A stretch of 63,973 nt of DNA, filler included, from Folioceros fuciformis (Eukaryota), in assembly GCA_049999805.1 (NCBI GenBank). It is 8 parts of 8 records of this genome, joined end to end, with 100 filler letters (N's around TTAATTAATTAA, not from the genome) between each part and the next. Parts side by side here need not be neighbours in the genome. Positions count along the whole stretch, not along the records: positions 32,150 to 41,315 come from JBNGIO010002944.1; 7 more parts are not named here. The stretch is one strand, 5' to 3'. Within the stretch, counting starts at the first letter, position 1, and the number at the start of each line of letters is the position of its first letter. The notes below the pieces were generated by a model that was not told the origin of the DNA, ran no database searches, and was given only the letters and a program-made list of their open reading frames with translations. Positions 11,171 through 52,646 of the stretch are shown here, piece by piece. The position numbers and the translations under genes are program-made.

Positions 11171-11172
11171 AC

Positions 11173-21752: not shown

Positions 21753-24700
21753 CTAGGCCTAAATATCAGTTCGCCAGGGTACGACCTGGCGAACCGACAT
21801 GCCATGCCATGAGCATGGCCTGCCTCTCCCATACCCCTCTCTCTCGTATCCGTGCCAACCCGCGACCAAGCCACCGGGGGCGAGGGGAACTAACCCGCGA
21901 TCAGGCCACCGGGGGTGAGGGGAACTTCCCGTCGTCCTGAATACTACGGCGATACTTTGGCACGATACAAAGTCAAACTCGTCGGCACACACAGCGTTTA
22001 GGCATGCGCAGCTGGGACGCACGGAGGCAGGTGTGGAGGAGGATCACCAAGACGAGCAGAGAGGATGATCACCAAGACTGAGTTTTTGATTATTTGCAGC
22101 ATTGGTCAAAACATATGAAGGGAGACATTACTGGCACCTACATCGCACCTACACCTACGCTAGTTTTCTTTGTCTGCTGATAAATTCCAAGTCACTCTCT
22201 TCTTCTTTTTCTTCGGTGGTGAGAAGAATGGCTTAATCCTGACGATGTTGGTGTCCCCCTCGTTGGTGGTGAATGCTTGAAGAGGCTGCCGTGTTGCAGG
22301 CATTTCCTGCTCATATGCAATCAAATGCTGAACATCCATGAGTGTACTTTTCACCAAAAGTGCTGCATCCCCCACGACTTCCTTATTCTTGTGCATCTAA
22401 TTCACAATAGCATTGCAATCTTGCTCTAGGAAGCGAATCTGATCTTCTGTTCCACTTTCGTTACATAAAACACCCTCCACAGCGGGTTGCAGGTTGCACG
22501 AAACGCTTTCCATCAACTGTTCTCTATTATCACATAAAGCAAGAGTTGTTACAGGCCCTTGAATTACCAGACCATTCGTTGCTGTATAATAACGTTTCAT
22601 TCGGAGTGTGTATGAGAGCACTCCAAGCATATCCTACACTTTCACGATGTGTTTACAAATAAAGCCTTTCCTCCCTTGAGCACACTCACATGTAGCCCAC
22701 ATGGAATCTGCATTCTCAATTGTATATGTCACATGGGCATCTGTTGAACTCCTGCATAAAGCTGTGGTCCAAGGTGGGGAAGGCAAAGTAACATTATCAT
22801 CGTCAATCAGAGTTGCCCCATCTATTACAGTGTGCACCAATTTCTCCTCGGTTTGTGTTAACCACATACCCTCCTTCTTTGCAATGGTTCACATACCAAT
22901 AATGGGACGCAATTACGAAGCACAATTGATGTAACAGCCAGTCTAATACCCTGCCAGCAAGAGATGCCCTCGTAAGACTAAGTTTCTGCTTAAAACACCG
23001 ATGCTATGCCTCTATAACAGAGGCACAGTCTTGCCCTGCATGCGGAAGCATGCGGGCATTTTTATGAACATGCCTGCAATCAAAACAGGCCTTGTGAAGA
23101 TGTGTATGTGCACAAGCTTGAAAAGGGAGAATACGAGGTTAGAGCTATGGACTAACCTAGTTGTGCACCCCGGGTTGTTCTGAAATAGCCCACGAATGCG
23201 GGTTGCCGTTTCTCCCACTTGGCATAGAAGGAAAATAGCAAATGCTCAACCTCCCGAATTGTATCTCAAATTGTTGTGCTGGAACCCTTGACGTACATCA
23301 GTTCACCTAATGCCCCATATGGCTTCCTTGTCTACCCTCTTTTGGACTTTCTTAATAAGATTAAGGAGCCAAGCACAATGCACATGCCAGAGGTAAAGAA
23401 GAAGAGGAACACTATAATTGTAAACCTTTCGAATTGCAGCAATCTTAGCTGCACAAGGGCAACCAATTTGCATCCTTACTTAACGAAACCTCATGAAAAG
23501 ATGTCAACCACCTGGCTATGGTGTCACTTTTATCGTCCTTTGCCAAAACCCACGCTATCGAAATACCATTCATATGAAGGTCGAAAGCCATAATTGTGAA
23601 GAGCTGGTACTTGTACTGGTTTACACCAAACGTGGAGTCAATCCCGAGCACATTATTCGTACCATGTGTCAAACAGGTCTGAAGCATGAACGGGGTCTCA
23701 ATCCCCAAACAAAACGACTGATCAATAGTGGACTTGTGAAACACAAATGCAGCATTGAGCCATGTTCATATACCCACACTAATATTGTCATCTTGATGAT
23801 GTTTCCACACTGTACCTTGCAAGTCGACGGGAAGATTGTCAATGTCTGCACTTGTCAAGAAATCATCTCTAACCTGGACATACTGTCACTCATACTCCAA
23901 GCTCGTTGAAAGCCCACAACATTTTGCCCGCACCTGCTCCTAGTGTTGTCTAAGAATCTCTGACACAAAAACATTACATAGTAAACCATGTTTCACCCAT
24001 GCCTTGTTGTCAGCACTCAAGTGAGAAGCCCTGACATTGTTTAGCATGCCTATGTACTCTAGGCCATGACACACTCTTTCAGAAACATCCACGTGCATAG
24101 TTTTGTATAATGTTACTTGAGCAATTACTGGCCATCTTCGTAGCTGTGCAATGACAAACGAAGCTTGACAACCGTGTTTGATGCTTTCACCGTTAGCAAT
24201 CCAAGGCTGTCTACGCTTCTTCTCACCCTCCACAGTAATAGGTACAGGTGGTGGAGGCATGGGAACATTCCGCAATTCCTGTGGCCCATATGCACAACAA
24301 TAAATGCAAGCAAAACACTAAAGATGAAATCTTTCAATGATACCAACAAGCAGAAAGTAAACGGATTGAATCCTTAGGGTCCATACATACCGTGTTGTGA
24401 CAATGGCTGCATCTAGCTTCAAACAACTTACTGTTGAAGTATTGCTGGCCGGCCCTCTACGAGATGCCTTGTAATAATTTGTAGGAGCATGTGACAATGA
24501 GTTCATGTCCTCTATGAAATCTTGCACTCTAGTCCAAGGGATGTAAGCTAGTTGTTGTTGTTTGTCTTGGCCAGGACAAAATGGATGCTTTTATGAGATT
24601 GCTGCTATTCCAAGTCATTGAAAGAAAATTTCCCTTCACCAGGCCTCTGAACTGCAAAAGGACAATGCACTGCAACCTCATCCATCGCTCGAGCACGATC

Positions 24701-25004
24701 AGTATACATGCATCCTCCATAGCCTTCAGTCTTTCAACTCTTACCGTACGTCATGCTTTGAGCAGAGTGCTCTCTCCGTTCTTGTTCTCAACTGAAACGA
24801 ACGAAGGGCGAGCAGTATCGCCGTGGGAATTGCTACGACAATCGGGGCGACGGGAACTTGAATTAGTTTCTCGTCGCTCATGGTAGCTCGGTCTCAGGTT
24901 GGCACGGATAAGAGAGAGAGGAGAAGGGGAGAGGAAGGCCATGCTCATGGCATGGCATGTCAGCTCGCCAGGCCGTACCTTGGCGTACCAATATTTAGGC
25001 CTAG
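21753..25004 (-). mobile_element. MULE-superfamily DNA transposon with ~140-bp terminal inverted repeats
   Basis: CTAGGCCTAAATAT...CATGCCATGCCATGAGCATGGCC...TATCCGTGCCAACC at 21753-~21892 is mirrored at ~24863-25004. The element contains a transposase pseudogene. Confidence 0.88.
22160..24720 (-). pseudogene. MULE-type transposase with SWIM zinc finger (resembles the Arabidopsis At1g60560/At4g13970-type SWIM family)
   Basis: IDSTFGVNQYKYQLFTIMAFDLHMNGISIAW (DDE core), CECAQGRKGFICKH (SWIM), HGCQASF...HVDVSERVCHG, CAYGPQE. Probable intron (GTATGT donor near 24390). Multiple stops. Confidence 0.85.
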
Positions 25005-26740: not shown

Positions 26741-27624
26741 ATGGGCGCCGCTCCCACTGCCTCTAATGAGTTTTGCGAATACCCTCCGCCAATTCCTGCA
26801 CCAAGATATCCAACTCTGGAAGAAAACCGAGCTGTGTGCATCTGCCCCGAGCATCCGCCACATTGTCGTCGGCATGGGCGGACACCCAAGTGGCTTCACA
26901 TGTGCAGACGAGAGAGCTGCCACATGAACAGATACTGGGAGGATTGGGTAAACAAGCTGAAGCAGCGAGAGACTGAGCTCAGGAGGGAACTGGAGGAGTC
27001 AAGGATGCGTCATAACCCAACTGCTCACTCTGCAGATCAAATTCCTAAACCCGAGACTCCTGTTCTACCTAATTTCATTTTGTCTTGTGGTCCCCTTAAC
27101 AGCGCTTTTCTACCTCAAGGAAGGGAGACAAAGATTGTGTTGCCGATGAGATACCGAGGGAGAACTTTTTCTTTGCCAAGAGGCCACCCTAACAAGACGG
27201 TGAGGCTTATCTCCGACAATGACGGTGGAAGCGACCCTCTAACTCTAGAGATGTATGTCTGTACTGAGACAGGAATAGCCATGAAAAGGGAGGAGTGGTA
27301 CAGATGGGGAGGTTCTAGTGGGAACTTTGTATCCTTTTATGGTAAGCACCTTCAAAACTCTAAGGTCTCCCACTCTTGTTGTTGTTTAGAGAAGGACTGA
27401 AAGGCTTACACTGAAGCACTAACTGTACATGTGTGTTACTTGCAGTTGCCAGGGATAGACCAAATGAGGAAGCAGTGATACCCTATGCAACTGAGGACGA
27501 GAACATTGAAGAAGAACCAAAACATGATTTCGACTCCAACTACCTTGGGATACTAAAAGCAAGGGGGGAAGAAAGAAGATCATTGTTCTTTGACGGCACA
27601 AGCTCAGGATCTGAGACTCCCTAA
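26741..27624 (+). CDS. Antisense two-exon gene of the copia element (exon1 26741-27341, intron 27342-27445, exon2 27446-27624; 259 aa), Cys/His-rich motif plus coiled coil
   Basis: G|GTAAGC donor, CACTAAC branch point (27417-27423), TTACTTGCAG acceptor. The phase-1 splice joins ORF 26741 in frame to ORF 27433-27624. Contains CICPEHPPHCRRH...LHMCRRESCH. Confidence 0.75.
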
Positions 27625-28845
27625 GAACTGTGAACACAATTACATCACTGGTAACACACAACAGTCAGTCATTCCTCAAACTGACATTTTCAATGCTGCT
27701 GGAGTCTAAGACTCCTAGCATCTTCTTAAACTGGTTGTGCTTTACCTTAGGAAGGGCTTTAGTGAGCAGGTCAGCTGCATTAGTTTTTGTTGGTATGTAC
27801 TCAAGACAGATCTGACCTGAAGCAACTACCTCACGAATGAAGTGGTGTTTAACTTCGATATGTTTTTTCCGTGCATGAAAGACAGGATTTCGTGCCAGGG
27901 TAAGTGCAGACTGATTGTCGCAGTAAATTAACGTCGGTTGAGTCTGCTCCTGTCCCAGATCCTTGAGTAACCTTCTCAGCCATATGTCCTCCTTTGCAGC
28001 TTGAGTGAGAGCAAAGTATTCTACCTCTGTAGAGGATAGAGATACTGTGGATTGTTTCTTAGATGACCAGGTAACCATGCCACCAGCTAATAAGAAGACA
28101 TAGGCCGACATCGACTTTCTTGTCTCTGGGTTTGATGCCCAATTGGCATCACAATAACCAGCCAGTGTAAGAGAATCCTTGGATGACTTTTGTTTCGAGT
28201 AGTGTATCCCATGTTTACTGGTACCTTTCAAGTATCTGAAAATGCGTTTTGCTGCTGACCAATGTATTTGTCCAGGATCCTTCAAGAATTGAGAGGCCAT
28301 ACTCATGGAAGGGAGATATCAGGTCTCGTATGGTTAGAGCAAAAGATCAAGGAGCCAACAGCTTGAAAATACGGTACGCTCATCATCTGGTTTTTCTCTT
28401 AAGCAGTTTGAGGTGACTGCTCTTTCAATAGTTTACTGCCAGCCTCCATAGGGGTTAAGGCAAGTTTAGCATCCAGGAGCTTGTACTTGTGCAACATATC
28501 AAACATGTACTTTTCTTGGTGTATAACTAAAGTGCCTTGTTGAGGATCTCGTAGGAGTTGTGTGCCCAGACAGTAGGACAACTCACCAACGTCCACCATG
28601 TCGAACCTTCCCAAGAGTAAGGACTTGACACGTTCAATGTATGGCACGTCAGTACCTAGGAGAATATAGTCATCAACGTGCAAGGCCAAGATAACATAGC
28701 CAGGGTCATCATGAAGCAGATACACATTGGAGTCTGCTGAAGACTTCATGAAGCCCAAACCTCGTAAGAACTAATCTATGTACTCATACCAAGCTCTTGG
28801 ACTTTGCTTTAGGCCATAAATAGTCTTGAGCAACTTGCAACTAGT

Positions 28846-29059
28846 AATAGAAATAGTATAGATACTTTATATAGAAACGTACTTTAGATAGAAATAGTAT
28901 AGTCTAGCAGCAGCATATAAAGTAAACATGTAAATAGAATTATATGTAAATAACCAAATACAATATGTCCTAAAGCTTGGAACCCTAACTGCCGGATGCA
29001 TGTAAGGTGTCCGTGCATCTAACGATCTCTCCTCTTTTTTCATAAAACTTTTCTTCATA
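28846..29059. mobile_element. AT-rich ~210-bp insertion (probable degenerate solo LTR) interrupting RT
   Basis: The RT reading GKEDW|CKLLKTIYGLKQ is split by unrelated AT-rich sequence. Termini and TSD are degenerate. Confidence 0.5.
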
Positions 29060-30365
29060 CCCAGTCCTCCTTGCCTGCTAGCAATCTCATGACCTTCGGG
29101 CTGTTGCATGTAGATCTCCTCCTCCAGCTTGCCATGAAGAAATGTTGTCTTGACATCTATCTGATGTATAAAGAGAGAGAAGAAGGCTGACATGGCAAAC
29201 AGAACTCAAAGGGACTGAGCCTTGACCACAAGGGAGAATGTATCATGATAGTCTAGCCCAGGGACTTGTGAGAAGCCGTGAGCAACCAGCCTGGCCTTGT
29301 AACGGGCAATGGAACCATCAGCTCGATACTTCAACTTGAAGACCCACTTACTCGTCACAATTTTCCTCCCTTGAGGGGGTCTACAAAGCTCCCAGGTTTT
29401 ATTAGAAATAAGAGAGTTGTATTTAGACTTTATAGCATCTTTCCATTGCTTGGATTTAGGATTGGTAAGAGCCTCATGATAGGACTGAGGCTCATGGCCA
29501 GGGTTGATTGCAACATGAGCTGTATCTCTAACCGTCTCTCCAGATCTAGTGGCAACCGAGCGCGAGACAGGTTGTGGCTCCCAACGTCCAGCCCAGGCCT
29601 CCGGTCTGTAGGGTTCCTCTAACCATTCCTCCCGAGGCCTATAGGGTTGAGAAGAGCGGCGTAAGGGAACTGAATGTTCGGGAGGATCAGGGAGAGGTAA
29701 CACAAACTGTACTGGGTCATCAACCTCAAGGTCTGAAACAGGTAAGTCGATGGGAGCAGAAGGAACATGAACTATTTGTGTAGATTGTTCTTAACCTGTG
29801 GCTGAGACTGAATCAAACAAGTCGTAATCATTGCTATGAGATTCAAAGTTGTGAGGTGGCAAAGGTGTGTCCAGAGGTGGAACAGTAACATCAGTGAAAG
29901 AAGGATCAGAGATAGGAAATTCAACGACATCTAAATCTGCCTCTGAGGATAAGTTCTCTTCTGATTTAGGTACTAAGACTGGATATTCATAGTCTACAGG
30001 ATCAACCACCTTTGGAGGCTTCAAGACAGGGCGCTCATCAAATACAACAGTCTTAGCATGACTGACTTTGTGTGAGATAGGGTCAAAAAGCTTGTACCCA
30101 TGAATTCTAGTAGTATAGCCAATGAAAATATGCCTTCTAGACTTATAGGCAAACTTATGTCGTAGCTTGTCAGGTATGTGGGCATAGGCTACACTACCAA
30201 AAATGCAAAGATGAGATAAGTTAGGCTTATGACCTGTCCACGCCTCAAACGGTATTACCCCTCGAAGAGAAGAGACGACAATCCTGTTTTGAAGATAAGT
30301 AGCGACTTCAACTGCTTCTGCCCAAAAACGTGTTGAGTTATCGAGCTCTATATAAGCTAAACTCA

Positions 30366-30555
30366 TGTGGTGTTAGTTATCCTGGTTGGGTTCATACTAA
30401 ACTAGTTCTAGTTATAGTAAGACAATGGTGATGCGTATTGTTTTTGGTTGTGACTACCAATACCACCCTCTCTTCTCTCCTCTCCTCTCCTACACTTGCG
30501 CATAGACTGGAGTCGATCCTATTGACAAAACGTACTGATAACCTCCCCTGAAACA
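30366..30555. mobile_element. ~190-bp TG...CA insertion (probable solo LTR) interrupting integrase
   Basis: Integrase sequence (NGRVERRHRTL ... FWAEAV) is split by TGTGGTG...GAAACA. No clean TSD. Confidence 0.5.
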
Positions 30556-32149
30556 GTAAACAACGAGCTGTATCCTATAGAGTACGATGTCTCCTCTCAA
30601 CCCTTCCATTCATGTCAGAGTGATAGGGAATTGTCAACTGTCGAGTAATCCCCTTATCCTGATAGAACTGTTGGAAGGCTGTGGAGAAATACTCTTTAGC
30701 ATTGTCTGATCGTGCACTTCCACTGCTTGCTTGTTTGTCCTTTAGCATAGGCTAAGTATCTTTTGAAACTCTCAAATACCTTGCTCATATGCTGTAGGAG
30801 CTCTGTTACTGTGAAATGAGACATATCACCTTCAAATACAACAAAGTAGCGAGCTCCTCCCCATGAGGCCACAGACATGGGACCATAGATGTCTGTATGG
30901 ATGAGATCAAGAACATCTGTGGGCTTGCGTTGCGTGGCTTACCACTGCCAAAATGGGACTTAGACTGTTTCCCATGTACACAGACCACGCACAAATCCAG
31001 GTCAGATAATTCGGATTCTGTAAATCCTGTTACCATTTTTTCTTTGAGTAGCCTTTGCATAGCCTTAATGTTGGGGTGACCAAGCCGGCAATGCCAATGT
31101 AAGGCCTTACTTGCAGTTGACTTCACTACAGCTGCATGTGCTATAGGCTTGGATGAAGTCGGGGAAACAAAATCTAGCAGATATAGATCATACAAGGGAG
31201 AACCCCTAGATATGACCCTAGTGGGAGAGTCCAATGTGGAGATCACACACAAAGGTATGTCGTGTGGTTTGCAAAGGTACATGTAAGGTATTCTCTAGCC
31301 TCAAATTCCCTCCATCCTTCAAGGAGATTTGGACTGTTCCGACACCCTTCATTGGGACTTCTGAATTATCTCCTAACGAAACTGCTGATTTGTGGCAGGT
31401 TGGAACACGTTCATATGTAACAAACTGCTTTTGAGATGAGCACATGTGATTCGATGCTCCACTGTCAAGGAACCATCGATGTGAATCACGAGCAACTGAA
31501 TTAAGGCAAGCTCCAAGCAACCCCGTCGTCGAGGCTCTCGCAATATATCCTTCAGGTTGCTTTCCCTTTGTTGCCTCATTTGCTTCTCGTTTCCTGCAAT
31601 CTTTAATCCAATGCCTTGGCTTATTGTAGTAATTGCAGTTACCGGGCTTCTTCCCACCTTGAAGAGAGGTGTTGTTTCCATAATTGGATGACTGGCCCTT
31701 GCCACGTCCAAAGCCTCCTCGTCCTCTACTTCTGCCTCGTCCTCGTCCTCGTCTCGAGAACAAAGCAGTATCCGTCTGTCTGTGGGAAGATCCTGCTCCA
31801 CTAAACCCTGATTTATGCATGTGCTTTCTGTTAGCCTCTGCTTATAGCAAAGCTCCAACTAACCTTTGGACTATCATGTTTGTTGTAGCTGGTGTATTGG
31901 CAGTTGCTGGTACAACTGTTGTTGCAACCTGTTGGCTAGAGCTGCACTGTTCATAACTCGGTGGTAATGATGCCAGTAACTGGATGGCTGCCCTGGACTC
32001 AGAAATTATAACACCACACGAAGCAAGCTTAGCTCTTGCAGCTCGAAACNNNNNNNNNNNNNNNNNNNNNNNNNNNNNNNNNNNNNNNNNNNNTTAATTA
32101 ATTAANNNNNNNNNNNNNNNNNNNNNNNNNNNNNNNNNNNNNNNNNNNN

Positions 32150-32688
32150 TTGTTCCTTGCTTGGTCAAGTGCTGTAGGCCGGCCATGTCTTATGGCGTCT
32201 GGTAAGGTTGTGGGGAGGAGATACCCAAGAGGGAAGTGTGTTCCCTTCTTCCTTTTGTTTGGGGTTAGTCTAGTGACTCTTGCCGGGTAGGATTAGTCCG
32301 TAGGGAAGTGTAGAAGGTAGTGGTGTCGTTGCTGGTTGCTGGTAGTTGTTGGTGTTGGTGCTGGAGCGAGAGAGTGAGTGAAGTGAGTGAAGGAAGTCGC
32401 AGATCTGAGAGGTTAGAGTCGTTGTAGTGACTGGAGTGAGTTTGTGGGCACCGAGAGAGGTGCAGCTGACCGCCGGACAGCGAGGCCTGTCCTACGCCTG
32501 ATCGGAGCTGGAGGGGAGCCCTCGAATCCGTCATCGAGTCGATCAAGTCCGACCCTCCGTCCACAGCAGCAAGGAACCCCATCGCTCCTTCGTGGGAACG
32601 ATACCCAATGTCTGAACGACAGTGGGATAAGTGTGGCCACTAAAGGTGGAACTCGTCGGCAATCCGTGCCCGGGGTTTTGCCTCCACA
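32150..32688 (+). mobile_element. 3' portion of an LTR-like terminal repeat
   Basis: ~32572-32688 aligns with ~54753-54867 (GGAACCCCATCGCT...GATAAGTGTGG...CCCGGGGTTTTGCC.CCACA). The similarity stops at ...CCACA in both. Confidence 0.6.
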
Positions 32689-32957
32689 GGTAACCCTAGC
32701 TGCAGTTGGGATTCAGCAAAACTTGAAGCTAAACTACAAGTCATAGAGTTCAGGTAACCCTAGCTGCAGTTGGGATTCAGCAAAGCGTGAAGCTAAACTA
32801 CAGGTCATAGATTTTAGGTAACCCTAGCTACAGTTGGGATTCAGCAGAACATGAAGCTAAACTACAGGTCATAGAGTTCAAGTAACCCTAGCTGTAGTTG
32901 GGATTCAACAGAACGTGAAGCTAAACTACAGGTGACAGAATTCAGGTAACCCTAGCT
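32687..32957. repeat. Tandem repeat, 64-bp unit, ~4.2 copies
   Basis: CAGGTAACCCTAGCTGCAGTTGGGATTCAGCA...GAAGCTAAACTACAGGTCATAGAGTT recurs at 32687, 32751, 32815, 32879 and partly at 32943. Confidence 0.95.
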
Positions 32958-33934
32958 ATCTCTTCATATCTGCTATCCAAAGCTGGAGCAATTGAGCACA
33001 TGTAGCAATCCAGTACGCAATCCCTAACTGTCACTCCTCTCCTTGTGCAACTAAAACTGATCACATGATCGCGATGGGCGGGCAATCATGCCCTGAAGAT
33101 TTAGATTCTCCTGAAAAGAATGGTGAGTCTGCCTTGAATTTCTCAAGGGGAGGTAGACTAGAAGCCCCAAGAAGAATTGACAATTGATTGCTGATACATT
33201 GCAAATGACCAGAATATTCTTCCTTCAAGGAAGAGAGTGCATGTTGTAGGCGCTTCTCCCTTTCATATATAACCTCTAGAAAAATATATTGTCTTGCACG
33301 CAATTGAGCTACACGTATCTCAATGCGATTACAATAAAATTCCACCACAGAATAAATATATTCATAGGATATATATAATATTTCATAGGATATTCAGAAT
33401 CAAAATCTTCTAAATAGTATCAACAAGAAACTCCAAATTAGATTGCAATTTCTTATTATCTATATGATGATATATAGGTGGTTGCTTCAATTTTTGATTT
33501 TTGGTCACTTGTTTGGAATGGCTTCTACAAGCCTCAATTTCATGATGTCTATCTGATCTTTGCTCTCGTTTCAAATTGTGGAGCCTTCTTTGTTCTTGCA
33601 ATTGCCTCTTCCAAAACTGTCGTATCAAAACTTGATAATTATCGAGTGTCTCATTGGTCCATGGCAGTTTGGAAGTGGGCGGGGAAATGTGTGATTCGCG
33701 CTGGTGTCTTGAAGGAAATTCACCATGCGACATTGCAAGATACAAAGGATTCAGACACCATCACGGGGCTCTGATAGCATGTGTAAATACCTCTTGTCCC
33801 TAGCTAAGCAAGCGAGCAATAAACAAAGGTAATATATATTCAACAAAGCGCAAAAGTATTATATACAAAATAAAGTCTCGTAACCCTAAATAACTAGGTC
33901 ATCATATTAACCCTTGCTGGTTATATATCCAACA
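32958..33934 (-). mobile_element. 5' end of a copia-type element (LTR 33780-33934, PBS 33768-33779, leader) abutting the RT of the next element
   Basis: GCTCTGATAGCA (PBS, one mismatch) followed by a TG...AACA 155-bp segment. It shares ATATTAACCC and TTGCTG.TTATATA with LTR 897-1084. Confidence 0.72.
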
Positions 33935-36035
33935 ATCGTACCCTTTTAGCCCTGGCAGACCATTACAATCTCCTAGTGCATCAACTGGATGTCAAAATAG
34001 CATTTTTTGAATGGCCTGCTAGAGGAAGACATCTATATGATCCAACTTGAAGGTTTTATCATCAACACCGACAAAGTTTGCAAGCTCCTCAAAACTCTTT
34101 ATGGACTCAAGCAGGCTTCTTGAGCCTGGTATGAGGTATTTCATAAGCTCTTGATGGAGCTAGGTTTCACCTGCCTTGATGCAGACACCAGTGTATATAT
34201 CTTATGGGATGGAGCAGACTTCTTGATCCTTACAGTTTATGTCGATGACAATTTCCTTTTGAGCAATTCTGCTACTCTTATGGCTCGAATCAACATGATC
34301 CTGCTTTCTAAGTTTGACATGACCGACCTTGGGGAACTTACCTTCTCCCTTGGTGTGCTGTTCCATCTCAATCCGACTAACAGAACTATTGACATACATC
34401 GGGATCACTTTGTTCATCAGCTCCTCAAGCATTTTAATATGCTTGATGCTAAACCAGTGACCACTCCTATGGCTCTTGGTGAGACACTTTCTGTTGAGCA
34501 ATGTCCCACTACCAATGCGGAGAAGAAGCTTATGGCCAACATTCCCTACTGACAAGCTCTTGGCTCCTTGATTTACCTTTCTGGTTCGACACGGTTGGAT
34601 ATTACTCGAGCAATGGGAGCTGTGAGTCAGTTTTTAGAGAACTCAGGTTTGTCTAACTAGACTGTTGTTAAACATATATTTTGATACTTGAAAGGAACTC
34701 CCCGACTGGACTTGCGTTTTTCGAAGTCCAAGACTGGTTTGGACCTTTCAGCTTATTGCCATGCGAATTGGGCAGGGGACCCTGATACCCGACACAGTGT
34801 TGTTGCCTATTGTACTTTCATGGGCACTTCCACTGTTTCCTGGTCTAGCAAGAACTATCCACTATATGTCTTTCCTCGACAGAAGCCAAGTGTGCAGCCA
34901 TGACTCAAGCTTCCAAGGAAATTATATGGATAGGCAGCTTTCTCAAAGAACTCCAACAACTTCAGGCAGATCCCACTCCATTATTATGTGACAACCAATT
35001 AGCCATCGCACTCTCAAGAAATCCTGTGTTCCATGCAAGGTCCGAGCATATCGAAATTAGCCATCATTTTATTCGTCAAGCAGCAGAGGGTAATAGTGTC
35101 AAATGCTCTTACTATGGACAAAGTCTCAGACCTTCTCATGAAGGCCTTGTCAAAACCATTACATGAAAAACACACTGCTTCTGCTAGTATTTGTGAGATT
35201 CCTGCTGTTGTTACTAAGTGCACTGCCCATTAGCTAGGCTTGCTTTTCTAATCCCCCAGTGGGAGTTTGTTGTGTTTCTTGAGTGTATTCACCATGTCTT
35301 TTCTGGCCTTCATCAGCCTTGGCAAACTCCTCTGTCAAAGCTACAAACCCACAGGGATAATCAGTCACTTCCCTTGCAAACAACAGATTCTCAACATAAC
35401 TTTCAAGTCAGCTACTTACTGCCGTATGTGACCCACACACCAGTTTCTGTCATGTGTGGTTCAGGTTTCTTCACTTCCTCTTTTCCTGCTCTCTTCGTGC
35501 CCTTAGCAGACTTAACAGGCTTGTGCCCCCACTCTTTCTCCATGTAGACCTCGTCATTAGAATCCACTGGAAGAGGGATTTCCATGTAGGCCTGCATCTC
35601 TTTGGGAGGTGGCCTTAGGGCCACCCATGCTATGCCTCCTTTTTCCTTTTGTTCAGTCTCTTTGCATGTCGTCTTGTGAAAGTCGGCTGCAGGCGCAGCA
35701 AACACTCTTGAAGGGATGCCCTTGTCGTCGACGTTCTGTAGTCTTCTCGCCATCTTCGCCTTCGAACTATCAGCTGGCACAGGACCGCAACTTGGGGACT
35801 CGAAGGAGACTATGTTTGAGTCAAGACAATGCATTGCATGGAGACAAGACTGCCTTTCAGAGAATTTCCTGACTGGAATCCAGATTCTCTCACAACCCAG
35901 GCACTTAAGGCCTTGTATTACATCGTCCATGGTCGACCACACAAGACGTCGATGTGCACACCTGCTTGGAGATAAAGATATCTAGGTGCAGAGGATAGCG
36001 AGCGAGAAGACTTTGATCACAAGTAACATCAACTC
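33935..36035 (+). mobile_element. Degenerate Ty1/copia RT-RNase H fragment plus 3' spacer with antisense gene (related to 16560-21390)
   Basis: HQLDVK, YILWDGADFLILTVYVDDNFL (cf. YILWEGANFLILTVYVDDNFL in the 16.5-21 kb element), NPVFHARSEHIEISHHFIRQ. Confidence 0.9.
35234..35930 (-). CDS. Intact antisense two-exon gene of the copia element (exon1 35930-35420, intron 35419-35341, exon2 35340-35234; 205 aa), putative C2HC zinc-finger protein
   Basis: A|GTAAGT donor, GACTGAT branch site, TTTGTAG acceptor. The phase-1 splice is in frame (...VTYG-TLTEEFAKADEGQKRH...EKQA*). Motif CLGC-x17-HAMHC. Confidence 0.78.
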
Positions 36036-37296
36036 TGTTAGAAAACAAGAAATCCCAAGATCAGGTCTTGGATCAATTCATTTCTCATAAGTAGTCCTTA
36101 CACACATATATAGCTTTAAGGCATGAACATATCTCGTTGGATAAGCAATTTATCTCGAGACAACCTATGTACTCTAATATAAACTAGAAACTACCAAATC
36201 CACAACTTAACTGGTTCACTAATAATTAGAACTAGTCTAGTGTGAACCCAACGGGTATAACTATCGCCACATGAGTTTAGCTCATATAGAGCTCAATAAC
36301 TGAACACTCCCCCTGGAGCTCAACTTAGCATCTGTATGCCTAACATAGCTCGGAATTTCTTCAGCTTCTTTGCTCCCATTGGCTTAGTGAATATATTGGC
36401 TATCTACTTGTCTGTGTTCACATACACAAGATCAATAGCTTCATATACAATCCTTTCTCAAAGAAAATGATAATGTACCTTAATTTGCTTCGTCCTCGCA
36501 TGAAACACTAGGTTTCGTGCTAACTGTATGCTACTAAGATTGTCACAATAGATAACAACCTTGTCATTGACCTGCAATCCAAAATCTCCAAGTAACTTAC
36601 AAATCCAAGTCACTTCACATGCTGCCATCGCTGCGCCGCTATATTCAGCTTCTGTACTAGACAAAGCCACTGTAGGCTGCTTCTTGCTGCTCCATGTTAT
36701 TGCTGCACTCCCAAGTGAAAACATGAATCCACTTGTAGATCTACGATCAGTAACACTACTTGCCCAATCTGCATCTATGTACCCACACAAGTTTATCTCT
36801 GAATTTGTAGCATAAAAGAGAGCATGATCCATAGTTGCCTTCACATAGTGCAACGTTTGCCTTACTGCATCCAAATGTGGCTTTCTTGGCGCTTGCATAA
36901 ACTGACTCTGCAGTCCCACTGTATAGTTCAAATCTAGTTTGGATATATTGAGATATATCAAGCTACCTACAATCTTCCTATACATTGTTGGATCTTCAAG
37001 TGCTTCACCATCATGAGCACTGAGCTTCAGATTTTGATCCAAAGGAATCGAAATTGGCTTACACTTAGCCATACCATACTTGGTTAGTACATTCGACGCA
37101 TACTTCTGCTGTGATAGCCAAATGCCTGTGTTGGTTCATATAATTTCAATGCCCAAGAAGAACCTCATTTCACCTAGGTCCGTCATCTTACACTCTTGTT
37201 GCAAAAGTTCCTTGATCTGCTCCACTTGATCCAGCTAATTACCTCCAATAGATTAGATCATCCATGTAGATGATCACAAAGACCAGTCCTTTTGTA

Positions 37297-37616
37297 TTCT
37301 GCACACACATACAACGAAGGATCTGCATCTGCCATGTTCTACACACACATACAACGAAGGATCTGCATCTACCATGTTCTGCACACACATACAACGAAGG
37401 ATCTGCATCTACCATGTTCTGCACACACATACAACGAAGGATTTGCATCTGCCATGTTCTGCACACACATACAACGAAGGATCTGCATCTGCCATGTTCT
37501 GCACACATATACAACGAAGGATCTGCATCTACCATGTTCTGCACACACATACAACGAAGGATCTGCATCTACCATGTTCTGCACACACATACAACGAAGG
37601 ATCTGCATCTGCCATG
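37297..37616. repeat. Minisatellite, 40-bp unit x 8, amplified from RT coding sequence
   Basis: TTCTGCACACACATACAACGAAGGATCTGCATCTGCCATG repeated 8 times with few substitutions. On the minus strand the unit encodes the RT segment ADADPSLYV. Confidence 0.97.
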
Positions 37617-38780
37617 CTGAATCCGACGTGAATCAGATGCTGAGCAAGACGCTCATGCCAAGCCCCCGGGGCTTGCTTAAGTCTATACAACGTTTTTTTC
37701 AGCTTGCACACATGATTTGGATGATCCGAATCCTCATAACCTGGTGGCTGGTCCATGTATACTTCTTCCAGTAATTCTCCATGTAAGAAAGCATTCTTCA
37801 CATCCATACGATGTAGGACCCAACCTTTCGATGCCGCTAGTGCGATCACGGTTCGAATTGTTGCCATTTTGGCAATTGGACCGAATGTCTCCTCGAAATC
37901 TATTCCATATGTCTGGGCATATCCTTTGGCCACAAGCCTTGTACTTGCTGAGACTGCCATCTGCGTTGTGTTTGACCTTGTACACACATTTGCAACCTAT
38001 TGGTTTCTTACCTTCAGGTAGTTGTACTAACCTTTGCCATATAGGCACGGTGCCTAGCTACATAGCTATCATAGGTCAACCGCTGTATTGGAACCTTCTA
38101 CATTCTAGATCTCCGTGGTATTGAACCACTTCCAGGGGCTGATTGAACCTCTTTTGCACCAGGTGTTTCGATTTTCGGTACACTGAATTCCTCATCCAAG
38201 CTCTGCTCAGAGTCACTTGAATCATCCACACGTGCACTCAGGTCTGGTAGCTTTGAATCATGGACTTTTTCCTTCCCTTTGCGAGACACAGCTGTGGAGC
38301 TCGGAGGGCTCACACTACCTCGCAACCTGCCACTCTATGGATTCTGAACATTTGTCGAGTTTGATGACGCTTGCATGACACTTGTGATTGTTGACCTACA
38401 TTGCTTGTTACCTCAGATTCATGCACATCAGCTACACTACTTGCTTGTACTTCAGAGTACCAGCTAGCCATTTCATCAAAGACTACGTCTCTGCTTACTT
38501 TCATAGTTCGTGTACTGGGATTGTAGCACCTGTATCCTTTCTGTTTAACAGAATACCCAATGAAGACACACTTTTCTGCTTTTGGATCAAGCTTAGTCTG
38601 CAACCCATCCGGAATATGGACACAAGCGATGCAACCAAATACCTTTAAGTGTGACAAGGCGGGTTTCTTCCCTATGAACTTCTCTTACGGTGTTACACTA
38701 TGCACCGCTGCTGTTGGAGTTCTTTTCACGATGTACATTGCTATGTTTACAGCTTTAGCCCAATAGTAGTGAGGCATCTT

Positions 38781-39206: not shown

Positions 39207-42200
39207 AGGCATCTTCTTCTCTGTGATCAATGCTCTCTCCACTTATGCTATGTGTCTGTTCTTGCGCTCTGCAACTCCATTTTGTTGCGGCATATAATGA
39301 CATGAGTACTGCCGTTGAATGCCCTGTTCAGATAAGAATTTGCTAAACTCTCGGGAGAAGTACTCTCCCACTCCATAAGATCTTAGGCATTTGATGTGCC
39401 TACCTGTTTGCTTCTCAGCCATCGCCTTGAAAGTATGAAAGTGAGTGATCACTTCACTCGTTTCTTTCATGGAATATACCCACACCTTTCTTGTGTGGTT
39501 GTCAATGAAGGTCACATAGTACTTGCATCCTCCGATTGATGCAATCTGTGTAGGACCCCATACATTTGAATGCACAACATCCCACACATGTTTGCTAACA
39601 TGTTTGTCATGGGGGAACGCATTCCTAGGCTAATCCCAAGTTGACATGCTTCACATACACCTTGCAATCCATTTGCTGTAAGCTCGGGTATGCCTGTGAC
39701 AACCTTCTGATGCTGCATGGACTTCAACTTCTGCACATTCACATGTCCAATGCGTTTGTGCCACATCTCTAGGTCTATCACAACCCTTGTACCCTTCGCA
39801 AACATGGCTGACTTCAGCTTAGGAACCTCCACATTCAAGGTGAACATTTGTCCAACCTTCTGTCCTTGAGCAATCAGGCGACCGCCTTTCTTGTACTCTT
39901 CAACGAAGAGTCCTGTAGGTGTAAACCTAACCTGTAGTCCTTGCTCAACCATCTACCCAACCAACACCAAGTTCTTTGTGATGTTGGGTACGTGAAGAAC
40001 ATGTACCAAGCACTTTACTTTGCCATCCTGCATCTTCAGAGGTACAGTTCCTGTATGCACAATTGCATGTGTTATGTCATCTCCATTTTCCACATATCCA
40101 GGTTTATCAAGCACCTACATTTCTTTGAACCACTCCCCATGGCATGTCATGTGGTTCAAAGCTTATGAGTCCACATACCACATAATCTCACCATTATTGG
40201 ATCCATTAGCAGACACAGAGTTAAGCATATGCTACATGACAAACAAGTTGTTCGAGTCATTCTGACTGCTGCTAGAGGTATAATTGTTTTGCTGCCGCCT
40301 GTTGCCTTGATTTCTCCGTGGATAGTCTCTTGCGAAGTGACCTGACCTACCACAAGTCCAGCAACCACTATTGACTACATTTCATCATTTTGCTATTGAT
40401 TTCCACGTCCTCTTTGACTCCCCTAGCCTCAAGAATTTTCTCCTCTTCCACTGGTACTCTTGTACTGGGACTCTTGATTCTATTGCTGATTTTGGTAGGA
40501 ATTTCTACCTCTACCACTTTGGGCTCTACCTCTGCCTCTACCATAGTAGAAGGCCTGCTCAGAGTTTTCCTTAGGTTTAGAGGATGATTCCTCGCCTAGG
40601 TTTTTCTCCTCTATGATCAACATAGAAATCAGGTCTGAGAAATTGGGAATGTTTTCCCGAGTCTGTATGGAAGTCTTGAACTGCTTATAGGCAAGTGTTA
40701 ACCCGCGCAAGCAAACTTGACCTTGTCGTCATCTTCCACACTAACACCATTGGATGGAAGGGATTCCACTATCCCTTTGATCTTTAACGAGTACTCATTG
40801 ATTGTCAAGTTCTTCTTCATAAATGTGTTGACGTCATTCTTCAACTATAGTTTCCTCGCCTTCGTGTTGGTCTCATAGAGTTTGACCAGCTCATCCCATG
40901 CTTCTTTGGGCGACTCTGCGTCTGTATGTGCCCAATCATGGTGTCATGAATGCTGATTGACAGCCAATACATGACCTTCCGAAATCCTTGGCTCCAATCC
41001 TTCAGCCTTAATATGCTCCGCTTTTGCATTCCTTTCAGGTACTACATGGGGTTTTGCATGCTCCCCCTCAATGTAGTCCCTACAAAATTATGAGAAGCAT
41101 TTTTGCTTGAGAAGGATAATCATCTATATACAAACAAGGTCTAATATTTTTTATGCCATAGGCAATGGCGGTTAGGTTTTTTTTTATAATTGTGTGTCCT
41201 TTCACACTAGGCTAACTAGCCCTAGCTGAAACTTATTCAACTTAGCCTAATTGTTGACTAACTAACGCTAGACTACTCCTAAGCTTCACTTTGCACATCC
41301 CAATACCCCTTTCCCNNNNNNNNNNNNNNNNNNNNNNNNNNNNNNNNNNNNNNNNNNNNTTAATTAATTAANNNNNNNNNNNNNNNNNNNNNNNNNNNNN
41401 NNNNNNNNNNNNNNNTATTACCCCAATTGCATCTTTGACTTGGGCATGACTTAAAATAGGATTTCCTTCGTAATATTTTTCAAAAGAATTTTCAACATTT
41501 ACAACTTCATTTTTGGGTGAAGGTCAAACAAAAGTCCATATAACATGGTTTATGCCATGCACTCTTGTAGTCTCACTACAATGGTAGACTCCTGCACTCC
41601 TATATTCTAACTGTTGTGTAGACCCATACAATCCTGCAATTGACTACATCGATAGACCCATGCATTCCCGCATTTCGAGTGCGCCGATCTATTGACACAC
41701 TCCAAGTTAGTTTTCACAATTATATACTAAATTACTTTACCACTTTTGCAAATGAAATGTGGAACTTAAGATGATGAACGTCTTCAATATGTTTTGAATA
41801 CATTTCCTCTGCTACTTCAAAAGTTGAGCACTTCAAACACGATATATGGAAAGCAAGCGGATTCTTAAATGCCCGTCGAGCCCCATTTTCAAAAAGGAAC
41901 CCCATAAAATGGTATGGGTCAGAATATAGTACAAGGGTCTTTTCTTGCCAATATGTTAAGAGGGGTTGGCTTCATGGACATTGAATCACTCGTTTTGCTC
42001 ATTTGTTTCTGATCCCCACCTAAAATCATTGTCTCTCTTTAGTTTTATGTGTCACCGCAAAAGAACAGATCTCACAGTCATGAGTGTAGAACCTTTGACA
42101 TCGGCAAATTATGGCAAAATAGCACCCATGTCAGCTCGCCCTCCTTGCCAGGAAGTCATTCTAATGTAACGTTTTTTCTCAATCAAGAAGTGCTCAGGCA

Positions 42201-43054
42201 TGGTAAAGTTCCATAGTATGGTTGCCCAAATTGTGTGAAGTTAGGTCAGCCATGGTCTTTGGAAAATGGAGTACCTTGCAGAGCGTAAGCATGCCTGCGC
42301 CCTTCCAGATGTGAGCATAAGTCATGTTGTCCAACTCTTACTTTAAAGTGAATAGGCACACAACATTAACATGTACTCACTTTCTAAGCCGCTTAGGAAA
42401 TTCCTTCTAGCCAAGAGCTATATAGGCTTGGGCATCAAGAGTTGGAGTTATGAGATGCACTCATGCATGCAATGAACCTCAATCGATCTTAGTCATCACA
42501 TGATAACAACTTCCCTCTCAAGGATATTGTATTGTTTTCATGATCTGCCTATACTCCACTCAAAAACCCTAAAAAAGCTATGATCAACAAACGAAGTCCT
42601 CTACATGTGCTCATCAACTAATGATCACGCGGCTCGTTATGTCCAAAAACATTAGTGGCAAGTAGGGGGGATGCATCCCTAAGGGTGGGCTCCATTGGCA
42701 TTGCAAGGTTTGCTTTATGGGCAATCAGGGCACTATAAGTGTCCTCCATTCATACGCTGGCGTCATCAGAATGTACTTGTTCTTCATCGTCGATATCATC
42801 AAACTCTTCCGCTGGGGCTTGTGCTCCACAGTGTGAAGGGGAGCCTGGTTCGATGTGTGGTCATAACAAGGCTAATTTCTCCTTAACAATCTTTTTTGTC
42901 TGCCGCATACATAGGTGCTTGCGTGGCGTCAAGTGGAATCCGTAGTATACAATCATGGTTTTTCTTGTGTACAACTTCTGGACATTTGGAGGCCGCTTGG
43001 GTCTGCCCTTCTTCTCACATATTTCCTCGAAATCTCCATCACCTCTGCGAACAA

Positions 43055-43303
43055 TTACTCTCTAACATACTTGCCCTCATAGGCACCAGTATAATATGTT
43101 TGCCACCAATGCACCAACAAGTAAGGCTCCCCACCTGTCATATGTGTGCTCACAACTTTTGCTAACCAAAACTCTTGATTATGTATATCGCCCTCACACA
43201 GTGTGATTATGAACATCTCTTTGTGTATTTTCAAGACATCTCCATTCATCCGCGAAATCTCAGCCTCATGCCTGCCACTACTTTGATATGCGCCTATGTA
43301 CAT
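43055..43303 (-). pseudogene. Protein-like ORF fragment, probably transposon-derived
   Basis: FWLAKVVS...LLVHWW looks like a beta-rich globular segment, but no family could be assigned. Confidence 0.3.
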
Positions 43304-44854
43304 GGGCCTCTATGGTAGGTCGCGCATAGTACTTCCTCTAACATAGCTTCTTCTAGTATCTACATGGGATGAACAACCTTTCCGCTTCACACCTATTGTA
43401 CCACGTTCAAGGGGTCATCAATACCAGATTGATATTGTTGTTCACAATATCAACAATTCACTCTTGATCTCACCAGAAGTCTTGCCACCTCACGTTTTCC
43501 CCATCAGTCAAGTATGTAGATAGTTTCAACAACCCTTTCTTCACATGTCCCACACATTTCCCAGTAGTCATCTGCCCTTCCTACCCCTTCTTGTCCTTTG
43601 GCTACAGTGATATTACAGTTGTTGGTTGAATGAATGTATCTAGAACATCCATAAGATACTCTAGCCCTTCCTTGGGTTCGCACAAAAGGGAGGTTGCGTA
43701 TTACTTGCTCCAGGTTACAGTGACCCTTTGCCTAGTTTCTCCTCCCGAGTTATTTTAAATTGGTGTTGCTATGAAAGTTTGTTGAGCTTCTTCACCACAG
43801 CCCTGTACATGTGTTGACCATCACCTTGGAGGACTGGCCAAACAAACCCTCTAAAATCTAGAACTTCAACCAAATGCTTATTCAGAGTATATAAGCTTTG
43901 CAGAATTCAGATGAGTTGCGGTACTATCTTTGCCTCTTTGTGCCTTAAATACTTGGAGAAACAAGAGAACATTGGATCTACTTGGCCATGTGTATGGTTG
44001 TGGAAGATCACATGTGCAGAAACTCTCCTCAAGATGGTCAGTTTGAATGATCCTTGTCATTTTTTTGTGTTTCGAGTGATAGAGTGTTTAGCTACTGCCA
44101 AGGCAAGGCCTTTTTTTACCAAAGGTGTTCTTGGCCCATGGCAATTTCACTCCTTGGCTTTTGTTTTTTTCTTTTTACCAATATCTATTCCTTGGACCAT
44201 GAACTATGAATGTAGGGCCAAACTAGAAGTTCCTTAGGCCTTAGCGTTTTAGAATAATCGAATTGACTATATAAGGGAGAGGGGTCCCCATTCAGCCATC
44301 GTTGTTTACTCGGGTGGGGGAGTGGCTCGCTCCACCACGGTGGCTAAGTATGGAGTGTACTGGCTGAACCAGGTGGAAATAGCAACCCTAGTTGTGGAAT
44401 CCAGACAGATAGTGAGCAGTGGGGCACCACTAGGGATGGAGCACAAATGAAGAAGTATCCTCCGGCACCACGACTTTGTGTGCTTCCAAAACGGGAAGAG
44501 ATCAGCAACGGGAGGTGGACGTGGTGGCAGCAGCGGGAGAGAAGTGAAGCATTGCGGTGAGGACGAGCGAGAGGCCAGCACACGGAGCTGGATATCATAG
44601 AAGACACCGGGGGGAAGCACTCATCTGAGGAGGCTCGAGGGCAGGGTAGCTAGAGAAAAGATGGAAGGTGAAGGGGGTACTTCAGCAGCGGTCGAGGAGG
44701 TGGTGAGGCAAAGTGCATGTATGGCTAGGAAATTGAACCAAAAGAAAGTTAGTAGTAAAGAGGAGGGAACCACCCCAGAATGGGACATGGGAAAGTCGAG
44801 GGAGATAATTGGAAGAAGCAAACCAGGATGGCACCTCAGGCTGTAGCAGTAATT

Positions 44855-46560
44855 ATGGCTGCTCAGTGGCTTCACATGGATCACTGGAAGGTTCGAGTTG
44901 GTGGCCTTTTGCAGGAGGTAGGTCTGGAATTTATGGAGAAAAAGTAGTGTTATGACAGCCCAATGCTAGTGCAAGAGTGTGCCCGATATTTGGAGGCCAG
45001 ATTGCAGGAAAGAGATCTGAGGCAGAGACCGCAGGACTGGTGCTTGGAACTCTTCCAGATGGTGTATGGACGGAAGGAGGTTGAGCATGGGGGTTTGGTG
45101 ATCAACCTTCGAGGAAGAAGACCCTAAACACTGTAGTGGCAGTGATTATGAAGCCTGAGGAGGTGAGGACTAACAATGGTTGGGTGGTTTGGCAATTGGC
45201 TTCAGCACAGTTTGTGGGTTTGGCCAAATGGATTCTATGCTTTCTACAAAGCAAGAAGTTGGACCATATCGCAGACCATTTCCTTGTCTTCCTCCATGAG
45301 GTGGTCAGTAGTGCACGGGTGGAGTGGAACCGAGTCATTTTTTAGCATGCTTGTGAGGAGAGGGCAATTTACTGACTTCCTCTCCTCTCCCTCCCTCATC
45401 TCGCCCTTCTTGATTCACATTTTTGCACACACCAAGTACTTAACTGAGTTGGAGATTGTGTCTTCTCTCCATAGCTGGAAGCCAGTCAGGGAAGTCAAGG
45501 TTGAGGAGGAGGAACCCAAGGAAGTTTCACGAGAGGACTCTAGCAACTGGGAACCTGAATCATCAGAGAACTTAGGGGAAGAAGTTGGGAGGGGCAAGAA
45601 AAGGAAGGCCCAACCAACAGAGCAAAGCATGGCCAAGAGAGGAAAGGTAGACACAAGAGAGCAAGAGCACGCAACACCAACCCGAATTACCAGATCGATA
45701 GCAGCAGCGGAACCGCGGGAAAAATTGGAAAAGGGGAAAAAGTAGGCTCACAACTCCACAACGTTGAAGGATGAAACGCAAAGGGTTAACGAGTTAGTTG
45801 TAGGACAAGAAGGGTTACTGTTGGCAGGGGAAACCCTTGAGGAGTGGAAGAACATTTTTGGGGACATCCTCATGGATTGCCCAACTGGAGCAAGAGCTGA
45901 AAACACAGCACAAGTACGGGAGTGGCCGTGGAAGAAGATGGGCCACGGAGCAGCCCAAATTAATGATTTGCAGGGGCTAATTTCAGTTATGTCCCAGATT
46001 TAGGTAGACGTCCTCAACCACGCTGCAATAGCACTCACTTGGCTCAGCATGCAAGGGCAACAAGAGGAGCTCTGCTTAAGGAGAAATTGGAAGATATTGA
46101 AGGTAGGAAAAAGCAGCAGAAGATCGTAAGTGGGAATGTGAGGAATCGCTGAGCAGGGCACATGAGGAGCTAAAGGTCATGGATGTTCAATCAGAAGGTC
46201 TAGGGAATCAAGTAAAGGCAGCCCATGCTACAATTGACGAGCTCCAAAATGAGATTTCCCGGTCTCAAGAGCTAGCAGCGCCGTTGGAGAAATTCAAGAA
46301 GCTAGCTCAGAGGTATGAGAGAGAGAGGGATGACGCTAGGACCGCAATCAAGGGTGAAGCAGGGAGATAGAAGAAGTGAAAGGGTTTAGCCACCGTAGTG
46401 GCCAAAGCAACCACTGTTGCAGAGTCAGCCTTGATTGTTGAAGCATGAATTGCAGTGGCTGAACCAAGCACCGTGGTGGAACCAGCCACTGTCGGAACCA
46501 TGGCAAGGGGGGATGCAACTCCCCTGGAATCCAAGAGGCAACCAACCCAAGACTGTTAAT
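44855..46560 (+). pseudogene. Retroelement accessory ORF (ATHILA ORF1/Transposase_32-like N-terminal domain plus coiled coil), copy A
   Basis: LVQECA, QFVGLAKWILCFLQSKKLDH, SLISPFLIHIF; homologous to copies at 51-54 kb and 57-59 kb. TATATAA at 44268-44274. Confidence 0.65.
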
Positions 46561-46669
46561 GAGGGGAGAGAGTAAGAGCCTCTTTAGCGGAAGGGCATAC
46601 TATGCTGTAATGTAGGGATGAAGATTCTCATGTCCCTAGCTTTTAGTTGCATGGTGTAGGTCCGAAAAT

Positions 46670-52620: not shown

Positions 52621-52646
52621 CTTCCGCAGCCAATGGTTTGGGGAAA

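Follow-up and report, generated by a model that had tools for sequence, protein, structure and literature searches.

The stretch analysed here (the window; 63,973 nt, Folioceros fuciformis, GCA_049999805.1) contains an open reading frame (ORF) on the minus strand, named ORF A, which lies directly behind the pol gene of a broken Ty1/copia long terminal repeat (LTR) retrotransposon, named element 5, and which is predicted to be interrupted by a single intron. The window was found to be composed of eight contigs strung together via seven identical linkers (N44-TTAATTAATTAA-N44), and features on either side of a linker are not genomic neighbours; the ORF A locus is located on the contig at 32150-41315. 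The GC content is 0.43-0.51 and the CpG observed/expected ratio is 0.44-0.54. Several Ty1/copia elements were mapped from Pfam matches among 150 + 71 stop-to-stop ORFs of the window, and two of them carry a comparable antisense ORF (ORF B and ORF C). The coordinates of all features are given in Table 1.

ORF A and its host element

The remnant of element 5 begins inside the reverse transcriptase (RT) gene, has an RVT_2 match at 34124-34549 (E = 2e-19), and aligns at its RNase H end with the other copia elements at 39-53% identity. The pol stop codon (TAG, 35231-35233) abuts the antisense stop codon of ORF A (35234-35236), which creates the palindrome TAGCTA and places the two genes tail-to-tail. 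When the putative intron was removed in silico, the predicted frame encoded 205 amino acids (aa) with no internal stop; when it was retained, the frame stopped at the TAG at 35414-35412 (..GGC AGT AAG TAG) after 172 aa. The coordinates of ORF A, the GTAAGT, CTGAT and TTTGTAG signals and the uninterrupted 205-aa frame reported in the initial annotation were arithmetically correct, and the several stops and frameshifts it reported in the adjacent pol were found as 4 in-frame stops and frame changes near 34004, 34856 and 35140 (~7 lesions in 1.3 kb). It had further spoken of an intact copy, which is true of the ORF but not of the element: an intact ORF lies within a dead, 5'-truncated element whose pol is broken. 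The rough Poisson chance of an intact 618-nt ORF beside a pol with ~7 lesions is ~0.04, which is a hint only. On the other side of ORF A, a purine-rich tract may represent the polypurine tract (PPT), and the TGTTAG at 36036 may represent the start of the 3' LTR.

The ownership of ORF A was analyzed with assembled contigs from public sequencing runs of the same organism, which were aligned to 33800-37200, the depth being summed at ≥80% likeness. Two runs covered the stretch, both apparently DNA runs of one sample. Single contigs had a depth of 6-10. The summed depth was 15-115 over 33800-36193, for the pol remnant and the ORF alike, and 15-56 over 35168-36193; it leapt to 1,600-18,500 from 36194, and the contigs of other copies diverged at 36214. 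One paralogous contig (34934-35345; 47 differences, 9 gaps) joined the pol end to exon 2. Two longer ones covered 35411-36031 (97 differences, 1 gap) and 35316-36031 with the intron included (107 differences, 2 gaps); both ceased to match at 36031 and continued with 186 nt unlike the window. The paralogous contigs were ~84-89% identical to the window copy, and at least three copies of the A family bear the ORF region.

Because of the depth jump at 36194-36214 and the paralogous contigs that bridge the pol end to exon 2, ORF A is owned by the low-copy plus-strand element 5 and not by the minus-strand element 6 on its other side. The pol of element 6 ends at 36458-36460 (-) and ORF A lies ~530 nt further along the same strand, as an env-like sense 3' ORF of element 6 would. 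That ORF A is such an ORF is extremely improbable, given the depth of 1,600-18,500 over 36194-37200 against 15-56 over 35168-36193, the divergence of other-copy contigs at 36214 and the low-copy contigs linking the plus-strand pol end to exon 2.

One run over 33800-37200 differed from the window mostly by G>A (218) and C>T (62), with no contig ≥99% alike. It resembles a library of the same sample converted by bisulfite or enzymes, and could yield the methylation state of the elements.

Equivalent ORFs in two other copia elements

RVT_2 and other copia domains were found in elements 3, 4 and 5, and the order gag-protease-integrase-RT-RNase H was seen in elements 3 and 4. In RT/RNase H, the amino-acid identity was 70% between elements 3 and 5, 33-58% between elements 3 and 4 and 39-53% between elements 4 and 5. 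The best database matches of the element-3 RT were plant copia polyproteins at 35-47% identity only, and no match was found among viral contigs; from these weak matches, the host looks plant-like and the copia lineage divergent.

ORF C, which is convergent with element 4, is intact: when spliced in silico it encodes 259 aa and ends 40 nt from the minus-strand pol stop of that element, and when unspliced its frame runs 19 codons past the donor, giving 219 aa. ORF B, which is convergent with element 3, is decayed, and its unspliced frame ends right at the donor (..TGT AAG TGA) after ~219 aa. The only pyrimidine-rich acceptor of ORF B would give a 45-nt intron and 7 further codons, and an end at 20114 requires the weak acceptor AAAAGAG and a 117-nt intron. 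All three donors are in phase 1 (exon 1 lengths of 511, 652 and 601 nt for A, B and C). No further copies of the three ORFs were found within the window. The recurrence of the architecture in two other copia elements, as proposed in the initial annotation, thus stands for the convergent antisense layout, the phase-1 donors and the intact ORF C, but not for the second exon of ORF B, which could not be recovered; likewise, the proposed intron size of 79-104 nt stands for ORFs A and C but not for ORF B.

Table 1. Positions of the antisense ORFs, the copia elements and the linkers in the window.
Feature	Position	Strand	Description
ORF A exon 1	35930-35420	-	511 nt, 170 codons + 1 nt; ATG at 35930, context ACCATGG
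ORF A putative intron	35419-35341	-	79 nt, phase 1; GTAAGT donor, CTGAT 20 nt before the 3' end, TTTGTAG acceptor
ORF A exon 2	35340-35234	-	34 codons + stop
Purine-rich tract	35985-36010 (region 35985-36031)	+	Possible PPT; paralogue match ends at 36031
ORF B exon 1	20947-20296	-	652 nt, decayed, 3 in-frame stops; start context ACAATGG; GTAAGT donor at 20295, phase 1
ORF C exon 1	26741-27341	+	601 nt, 200 codons + 1 nt; start context GACATGG
ORF C putative intron	27342-27445	+	104 nt, phase 1; GTAAGC ... CTAAC ... TTACTTGCAG (TTGCAG acceptor)
ORF C exon 2	27446-27624	+	58 codons + split codon + stop
Element 2	~7740-10883	+	Copia (Pfam map)
Element 3	16530-20072	+	Copia, gag to RNase H; natural pol stop 20070-20072; convergent with ORF B
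Element 4	27665-32049	-	Copia, protease barrel to RNase H, ~9 frame breaks; cut by the contig end; convergent with ORF C
Element 5	~33937-35233	+	5'-truncated, broken Ty1/copia RT-RNase H remnant, low copy; owner of ORF A
Element 6	36214 to ~40700	-	Very high-copy copia, pol stop 36458-36460; neighbour marking the boundary, outside the finding
Copia fragments	1517-3527, 61260-62117, 62798-63972		Pfam scan
Linkers	15995-16094, 32050-32149, 41316-41415, 49433-49532, 54578-54677, 61160-61259, 62746-62845		

Coding potential and predicted splicing

Each 1-kb region downstream of pol was subjected to 2000 dinucleotide shuffles, with the length of the unspliced ATG-initiated ORF as the statistic. 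The observed length was matched in 1 of 2000 shuffles for ORF A (172 aa) and in none of 2000 for ORF C (219 aa); the ATG-initiated ORF of B (70 aa) was not significant in this test. The frame of ORF B holds 3 in-frame stops, as compared with 8-16 in the other five frames. The motif GTAAG[TC] occurs 40 times in the window, both strands counted, and is therefore expected ~0.02 times per 60 nt, yet A, B and C all end at such a motif. In all three frames the first ATG is preceded by a purine at -3 and followed by G at +4. The T content of the putative introns is high (35% in A, against 20% and 15% in its exons; 30% in C, against 23% and 19%), and the exon 2 segments are purine-rich, as is exon 1. 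The acceptor that looks best in A and in C also extends the frame furthest (by 35 and 59 codons), the extension ending 0 and 40 nt from the pol stop.

Codon use was scored with a table trained on the Pfam-positive pol ORFs of the window, stops excluded, and was compared with that of 338 non-pol ORFs. Exon 1 of A (0.139), exon 2 of A (0.237) and ORF B (0.119) scored at the level of pol or above (0.099 ± 0.050) and fell within the top 0-6% of the non-pol ORFs, exon 2 of A exceeding all 338; exon 2 of C scored 0.097, at 9% of the non-pol ORFs. Because of the shuffle results, the depletion of stops, the donors, the start contexts, the T-rich introns, the codon use and the acceptors, it is concluded that A and C are coding sequences or were so until recently, B being their decayed counterpart. 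The reading of ORF A as a gene in the initial annotation is supported by its length, its RNNATGG start, its T-rich intron and its pol-like codon use.

A two-exon structure is likely from the arrangement of these signals. The alternative that the ORFs are real element-borne genes with a single exon (A, 172 aa; B, ~219 aa; C, 219 aa) and that the introns are coincidental is in keeping with the unspliced frames, which stop at once in A and B and after 19 codons in C, and with the lack of an acceptor giving a plausible exon 2 in B. It is considered unlikely, as a consensus donor, each time in the same phase, closes all three long ORFs, the best acceptor in A and C opens a frame of 35 or 59 codons that comes as close as 0-40 nt to the pol stop, the segment in between is rich in T, and exon 2 is purine-rich like exon 1 and has, in A, the highest codon score.

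Interpretation of ORF A

It is probable, though only somewhat better than an even chance, that ORF A represents the remains of a real two-exon protein-coding antisense gene, situated between the pol stop and the PPT/3' LTR of an old, low-copy Ty1/copia family. A number of observations weigh against this interpretation. Both of the paralogues that cover exon 1 carry a frameshifting insertion (+4 nt after 35576 in one, +1 nt after 35649 in the other). The divergence between copies was ~15-16% in the ORF and ~12-14% in pol, with no sign of stronger constraint, and the 4 exon-1 substitutions among the differences listed (40 of 745) fall at codon positions 2, 1, 2 and 2. Taken jointly (3 or more lesions in 2.2 kb), the three ORFs decay about as fast as the pol genes. 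The codon use of C exon 1 is ordinary (score 0.025, reached by 35% of the non-pol ORFs). The long ORFs are explicable without an intron, the unspliced frames of A and B stopping inside or just past the donor, and ORF B has no usable acceptor from which exon 2 could be recovered. No LTR pair was definable for elements 3, 4 and 5, as no flanking direct repeats were found within the contigs; because contig ends or insertions cut these elements short, this is no proof that LTRs are absent. None of the runs covering the stretch was recorded as RNA; a run guessed to be RNA yielded 3 contigs only, each of which fell on element 6 and not on ORF A.

The homology searches add to these points. No Pfam family was found for exon 1 of A or of C (E <= 0.01), nor for the stop-to-stop frames (E <= 0.001), and Transposase_28 (PF04195) was not found in A or C in the Pfam scan. 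Exon 1 of A had no homologue in a word-indexed search of 5.8 billion proteins, restricted to lengths of 93-298 aa. Metagenome contigs gave no match for A or C, viral contigs gave none for A, and the ESM Atlas gave no usable match for either. Between the ORFs themselves, local alignment gave Z = 2.96 for A-B (a CxxC...H...C block), 0.23 for A-C and 0.20 for B-C; semi-global alignment of the pairs remained at noise level (Z = 0.76, -0.45 and -0.66); and a hidden Markov model (HMM) built from any two of the ORFs ranked the third at 183/372, 160/376 and 166/377 among the ORFs of the window.

Two candidate similarities were rejected. An exhaustive search of 1.84 billion representatives with exon 1 of C returned a single match, to a coiled-coil protein with a 13-fold repeat, on the pattern 'KLK..RE..LRRE', which is compositional. 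A collinear MAFFT pattern in A, B and C (CxxC...H...C; SCGP; R-x-F/Y-x-x-P...K-T...GG) was not accepted as homology, as it failed the shuffle and cross-HMM tests.

The predicted A and C proteins are hydrophilic (grand average of hydropathy -0.78 and -0.88) and near-neutral, with Cys/His residues clustered in the first 35-61 residues; in the ORF A product, basic runs follow further along. Their protein-language-model recognition values were 1830 and 1880, below the 2300 reached by 91 of 100 known-family proteins. Structure prediction, which the initial annotation had advised for the spliced protein, gave no usable fold: the single-sequence AlphaFold2 models of A and C had predicted local distance difference test (pLDDT) values of 38 and 45, which were too low for a fold search. 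These low-confidence folds and recognition values, the missing homologues and Pfam families, the frameshifts in both exon-1-covering paralogues and the existence of antisense non-coding retrotransposon transcripts, described in PMC7264820, would suit ORFs that are non-coding and open by chance or composition, acting at most as regulatory antisense RNA. This explanation is very unlikely in view of the shuffle tests of A and C, the stop depletion of the B frame, the start contexts and the resemblance of A and B to pol in codon use.

As the same layout was found in two other copia families (RT 39-70% identical to element 5), one old acquisition followed by rapid divergence is suggested. The elements are related in RT yet their ORFs are dissimilar, and therefore, if the ORFs share an origin, they would have evolved far faster than pol. 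Independent captures of host DNA or other genes by each family, with the layout reflecting where cargo is tolerated (between pol and PPT), would account for the lack of demonstrable similarity among A, B and C and for the two other copia elements of the window without the interval: in element 2 the 3' LTR begins 19 nt past the last pol ORF, and in element 6 the boundary lies ~245 nt past the pol stop, neither leaving room for an antisense gene. Extra ORFs of plant LTR retrotransposons are, according to PMC6317226, highly heterogeneous and perhaps independently acquired. Nevertheless, the shared orientation, size, phase-1 intron 35-59 codons before the stop and tail-to-tail fit with pol in 3 of 3 cases would not be expected of independent captures, the protein searches (at lengths of 93-298 aa for A) gave no host-gene homologue of A or C, and the only protein match above noise (A-B) comes from the pair closest in RT (elements 3 and 5, 70%). 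Independent capture is thus regarded as quite improbable.

That, across divergence down to ~39-70% RT identity, a Ty1/copia clade retained an antisense accessory gene that evolves fast, contains an intron and is transcribed from the LTR side, which would make it the first spliced one described in copia and a plant counterpart of HBZ, is put forward as a tentative and rather doubtful extension of the two-exon gene reading. A lineage-wide accessory system, as the initial annotation envisaged, was not upheld: the layout is the evidence for it, the three proteins have no demonstrable similarity, and elements 2 and 6 have no room for the gene.

Proposed propagation and expression

Splice signals are strand-specific, and an intron on the antisense strand is left in place in sense genomic RNA, so that each new insertion receives it. 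If ORF A is a two-exon gene, its intron signals would be present only on the antisense strand; the sense genomic RNA would therefore not be spliced there, and each new copy would inherit the intron-containing gene. As the ORF takes up the entire space between pol and PPT in a low-copy family, antisense transcription would start no more than ~100 nt from the ATG or, directed inward, in the 3' LTR. The antisense 3' untranslated region and poly(A) site would then lie opposite the RNase H coding sequence, and this overlap would expose the element to the formation of double-stranded RNA (dsRNA). As such self-exposure would be costly to the element, a maintained ORF presumably pays its way. The product would be a small (205 aa), fast-evolving accessory or regulatory protein, like the antisense proteins of Grande and Retand, and a small charged Cys/His protein would fit the nucleic-acid-binding or regulatory role proposed for those proteins. 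A bacterial promoter/terminator scan of 35900-36250 was set aside as irrelevant for a eukaryotic gene.

Other features of the window

Element 2 is flanked by an 80.7% direct repeat of ~270 nt (6829-7079 and 10902-11170), a third copy of which lies in another contig (49119-49366). It is likely the short LTR pair of a compact ~4.3-kb copia element without a post-pol interval. Just 3' of the putative 3' LTR, at 11369-11842 (+), a 158-aa open frame matches Pfam N6_N4_Mtase (E = 6.8e-7; profile positions 162-216 of 221), an odd domain beside a copia element in a plant-like genome; no match was found for it among solved structures. A 1952-aa copia-type polyprotein from a metagenome assembly (a database protein) contains a C-5 cytosine DNA methylase (PF00145) besides integrase and RT.

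The family of element 6 comprises hundreds of copies or more, from the summed depth of 1,600-18,500 against 6-10 for single contigs. An 86-nt block (36222-36307), 87% identical to 30330-30415 in the integrase region of element 4, is even commoner than element 6. Within the RT/RNase H region of element 6, a tandem array with a 40-nt unit (37217-37656; 8 overlapping 160-nt copies, core 95-98% alike) keeps several reading frames open over long distances on both strands. Another tandem array, at 32688-33007 with a 64-nt unit (~5 copies, 90-91% alike), lies on the upstream side of the element 5 remnant. Downstream of the convergent elements 3 and 4, a 140-nt block occurs in inverted orientation (21753-21893 and 24863-25004; 84.5% alike), possibly a segment conserved in the 3' LTRs of the two elements, or else a short repeat that was inserted.

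A host-like exon of the Solute_trans_a family (Ostalpha-type transporter, E = 3.3e-13) was found at 14274-14603 (+), and a fragment of a Mutator-like element (MULE) transposase at 23448-23765 (-). The contigs at 41416-61159 have diverged repeats with 66-84% identity in common (52926-54577 vs 58143-59857; 45197-45577 vs 57713-58095); they contain long frames of up to 333 aa that match no Pfam entry (ORF 57538-58536, +), and a repeat family is represented by them.

Relation to known systems and significance

Antisense ORFs between pol and the 3' LTR have been described in Grande, RIRE2, Retand, PvRetro13 and Boty, and those of Retand mostly carry Transposase_28 (PMC7264820 and PMC11963269); the word 'intron' is absent from the main texts of both papers. 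The same sources present the Tat/Retand ORFs as mostly without clear cellular similarity and with a presumed regulatory or nucleic-acid-binding role, as is the case here. In the Tat/Retand gypsy elements (maize Grande gene23, rice RIRE2, Silene Retand; TRP28/Transposase_28) the ORF holds the same pol-to-3' LTR position, the LTR side being a prediction in the present elements, and is likewise antisense and convergent with pol and in need of its own promoter. In contrast, the host here is Ty1/copia and not gypsy, the interval is ~0.75-0.9 kb as compared with 2.9-6.6 kb in Retand, the ORFs have no PF04195 or other Pfam match, and a putative intron is present.

Extra ORFs of ≥250 codons were surveyed in 582 copia elements, and the SIRE sense ORF alone is named as characteristic in the accessible part of that survey (PMC6317226). 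The env-like ORF of SIRE (Sirevirus) is likewise an extra copia ORF downstream of pol and heterogeneous between families (same source), but it is a sense ORF (eORF-3'F), whereas the ORFs described here are antisense and much shorter. Unspliced, these ORFs fall under the 250-codon cut-off of the survey, and C reaches 259 only when spliced. The initial annotation's picture of the field, with sense env-like ORFs in copia and antisense ORFs mainly in Tat/Retand gypsy elements, agrees with PMC6317226, PMC7264820 and PMC11963269. Gene fragments transduced by LTR retrotransposons, which are reported in one or few copies (PMC7264820), likewise place coding sequence in the internal region; in the present case the A family has the region in at least three copies, the layout is common to three families, and no donor gene was found in the protein searches. 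No account of a spliced antisense gene in copia came up in full-text literature searches; reverse-oriented copia ORFs may be listed in the supplementary tables of PMC6317226, which lie outside the coverage of those searches.

HBZ of human T-cell leukaemia virus type 1 (HTLV-1) is likewise a minus-strand gene at the 3' end of a retroelement, presumably also driven from the LTR side and spliced, with an intron invisible to the sense genomic RNA; for the present ORFs these traits are predicted from the DNA. Unlike HBZ, the ORFs have no bZIP or other recognisable domain, the host is plant-like and not animal, and the coding sequence has its intron towards the 3' end. Judged by its predicted structure, ORF A would best be filed among the known antisense extra ORFs of LTR retrotransposons, and the intron and the copia host would be what is new.

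Extra genes of LTR retrotransposons are the nearest plant equivalent of retroviral accessory genes, and to our knowledge none of them has a known function. If the interpretation of ORF A is true, the antisense-gene strategy arose, or was kept, in the copia superfamily too, and surveys with long-ORF cut-offs (250 codons, unspliced) miss such genes. In annotation, such ORFs may be mistaken for host genes. Antisense transcription over the 3' end of pol would feed the production of dsRNA and small interfering RNA, and the fast change of the sequences would be in keeping with a role in conflict with the host, such as anti-silencing. The predicted protein would then offer a small, tractable candidate (~200 aa) for probing what proteins of this kind do.

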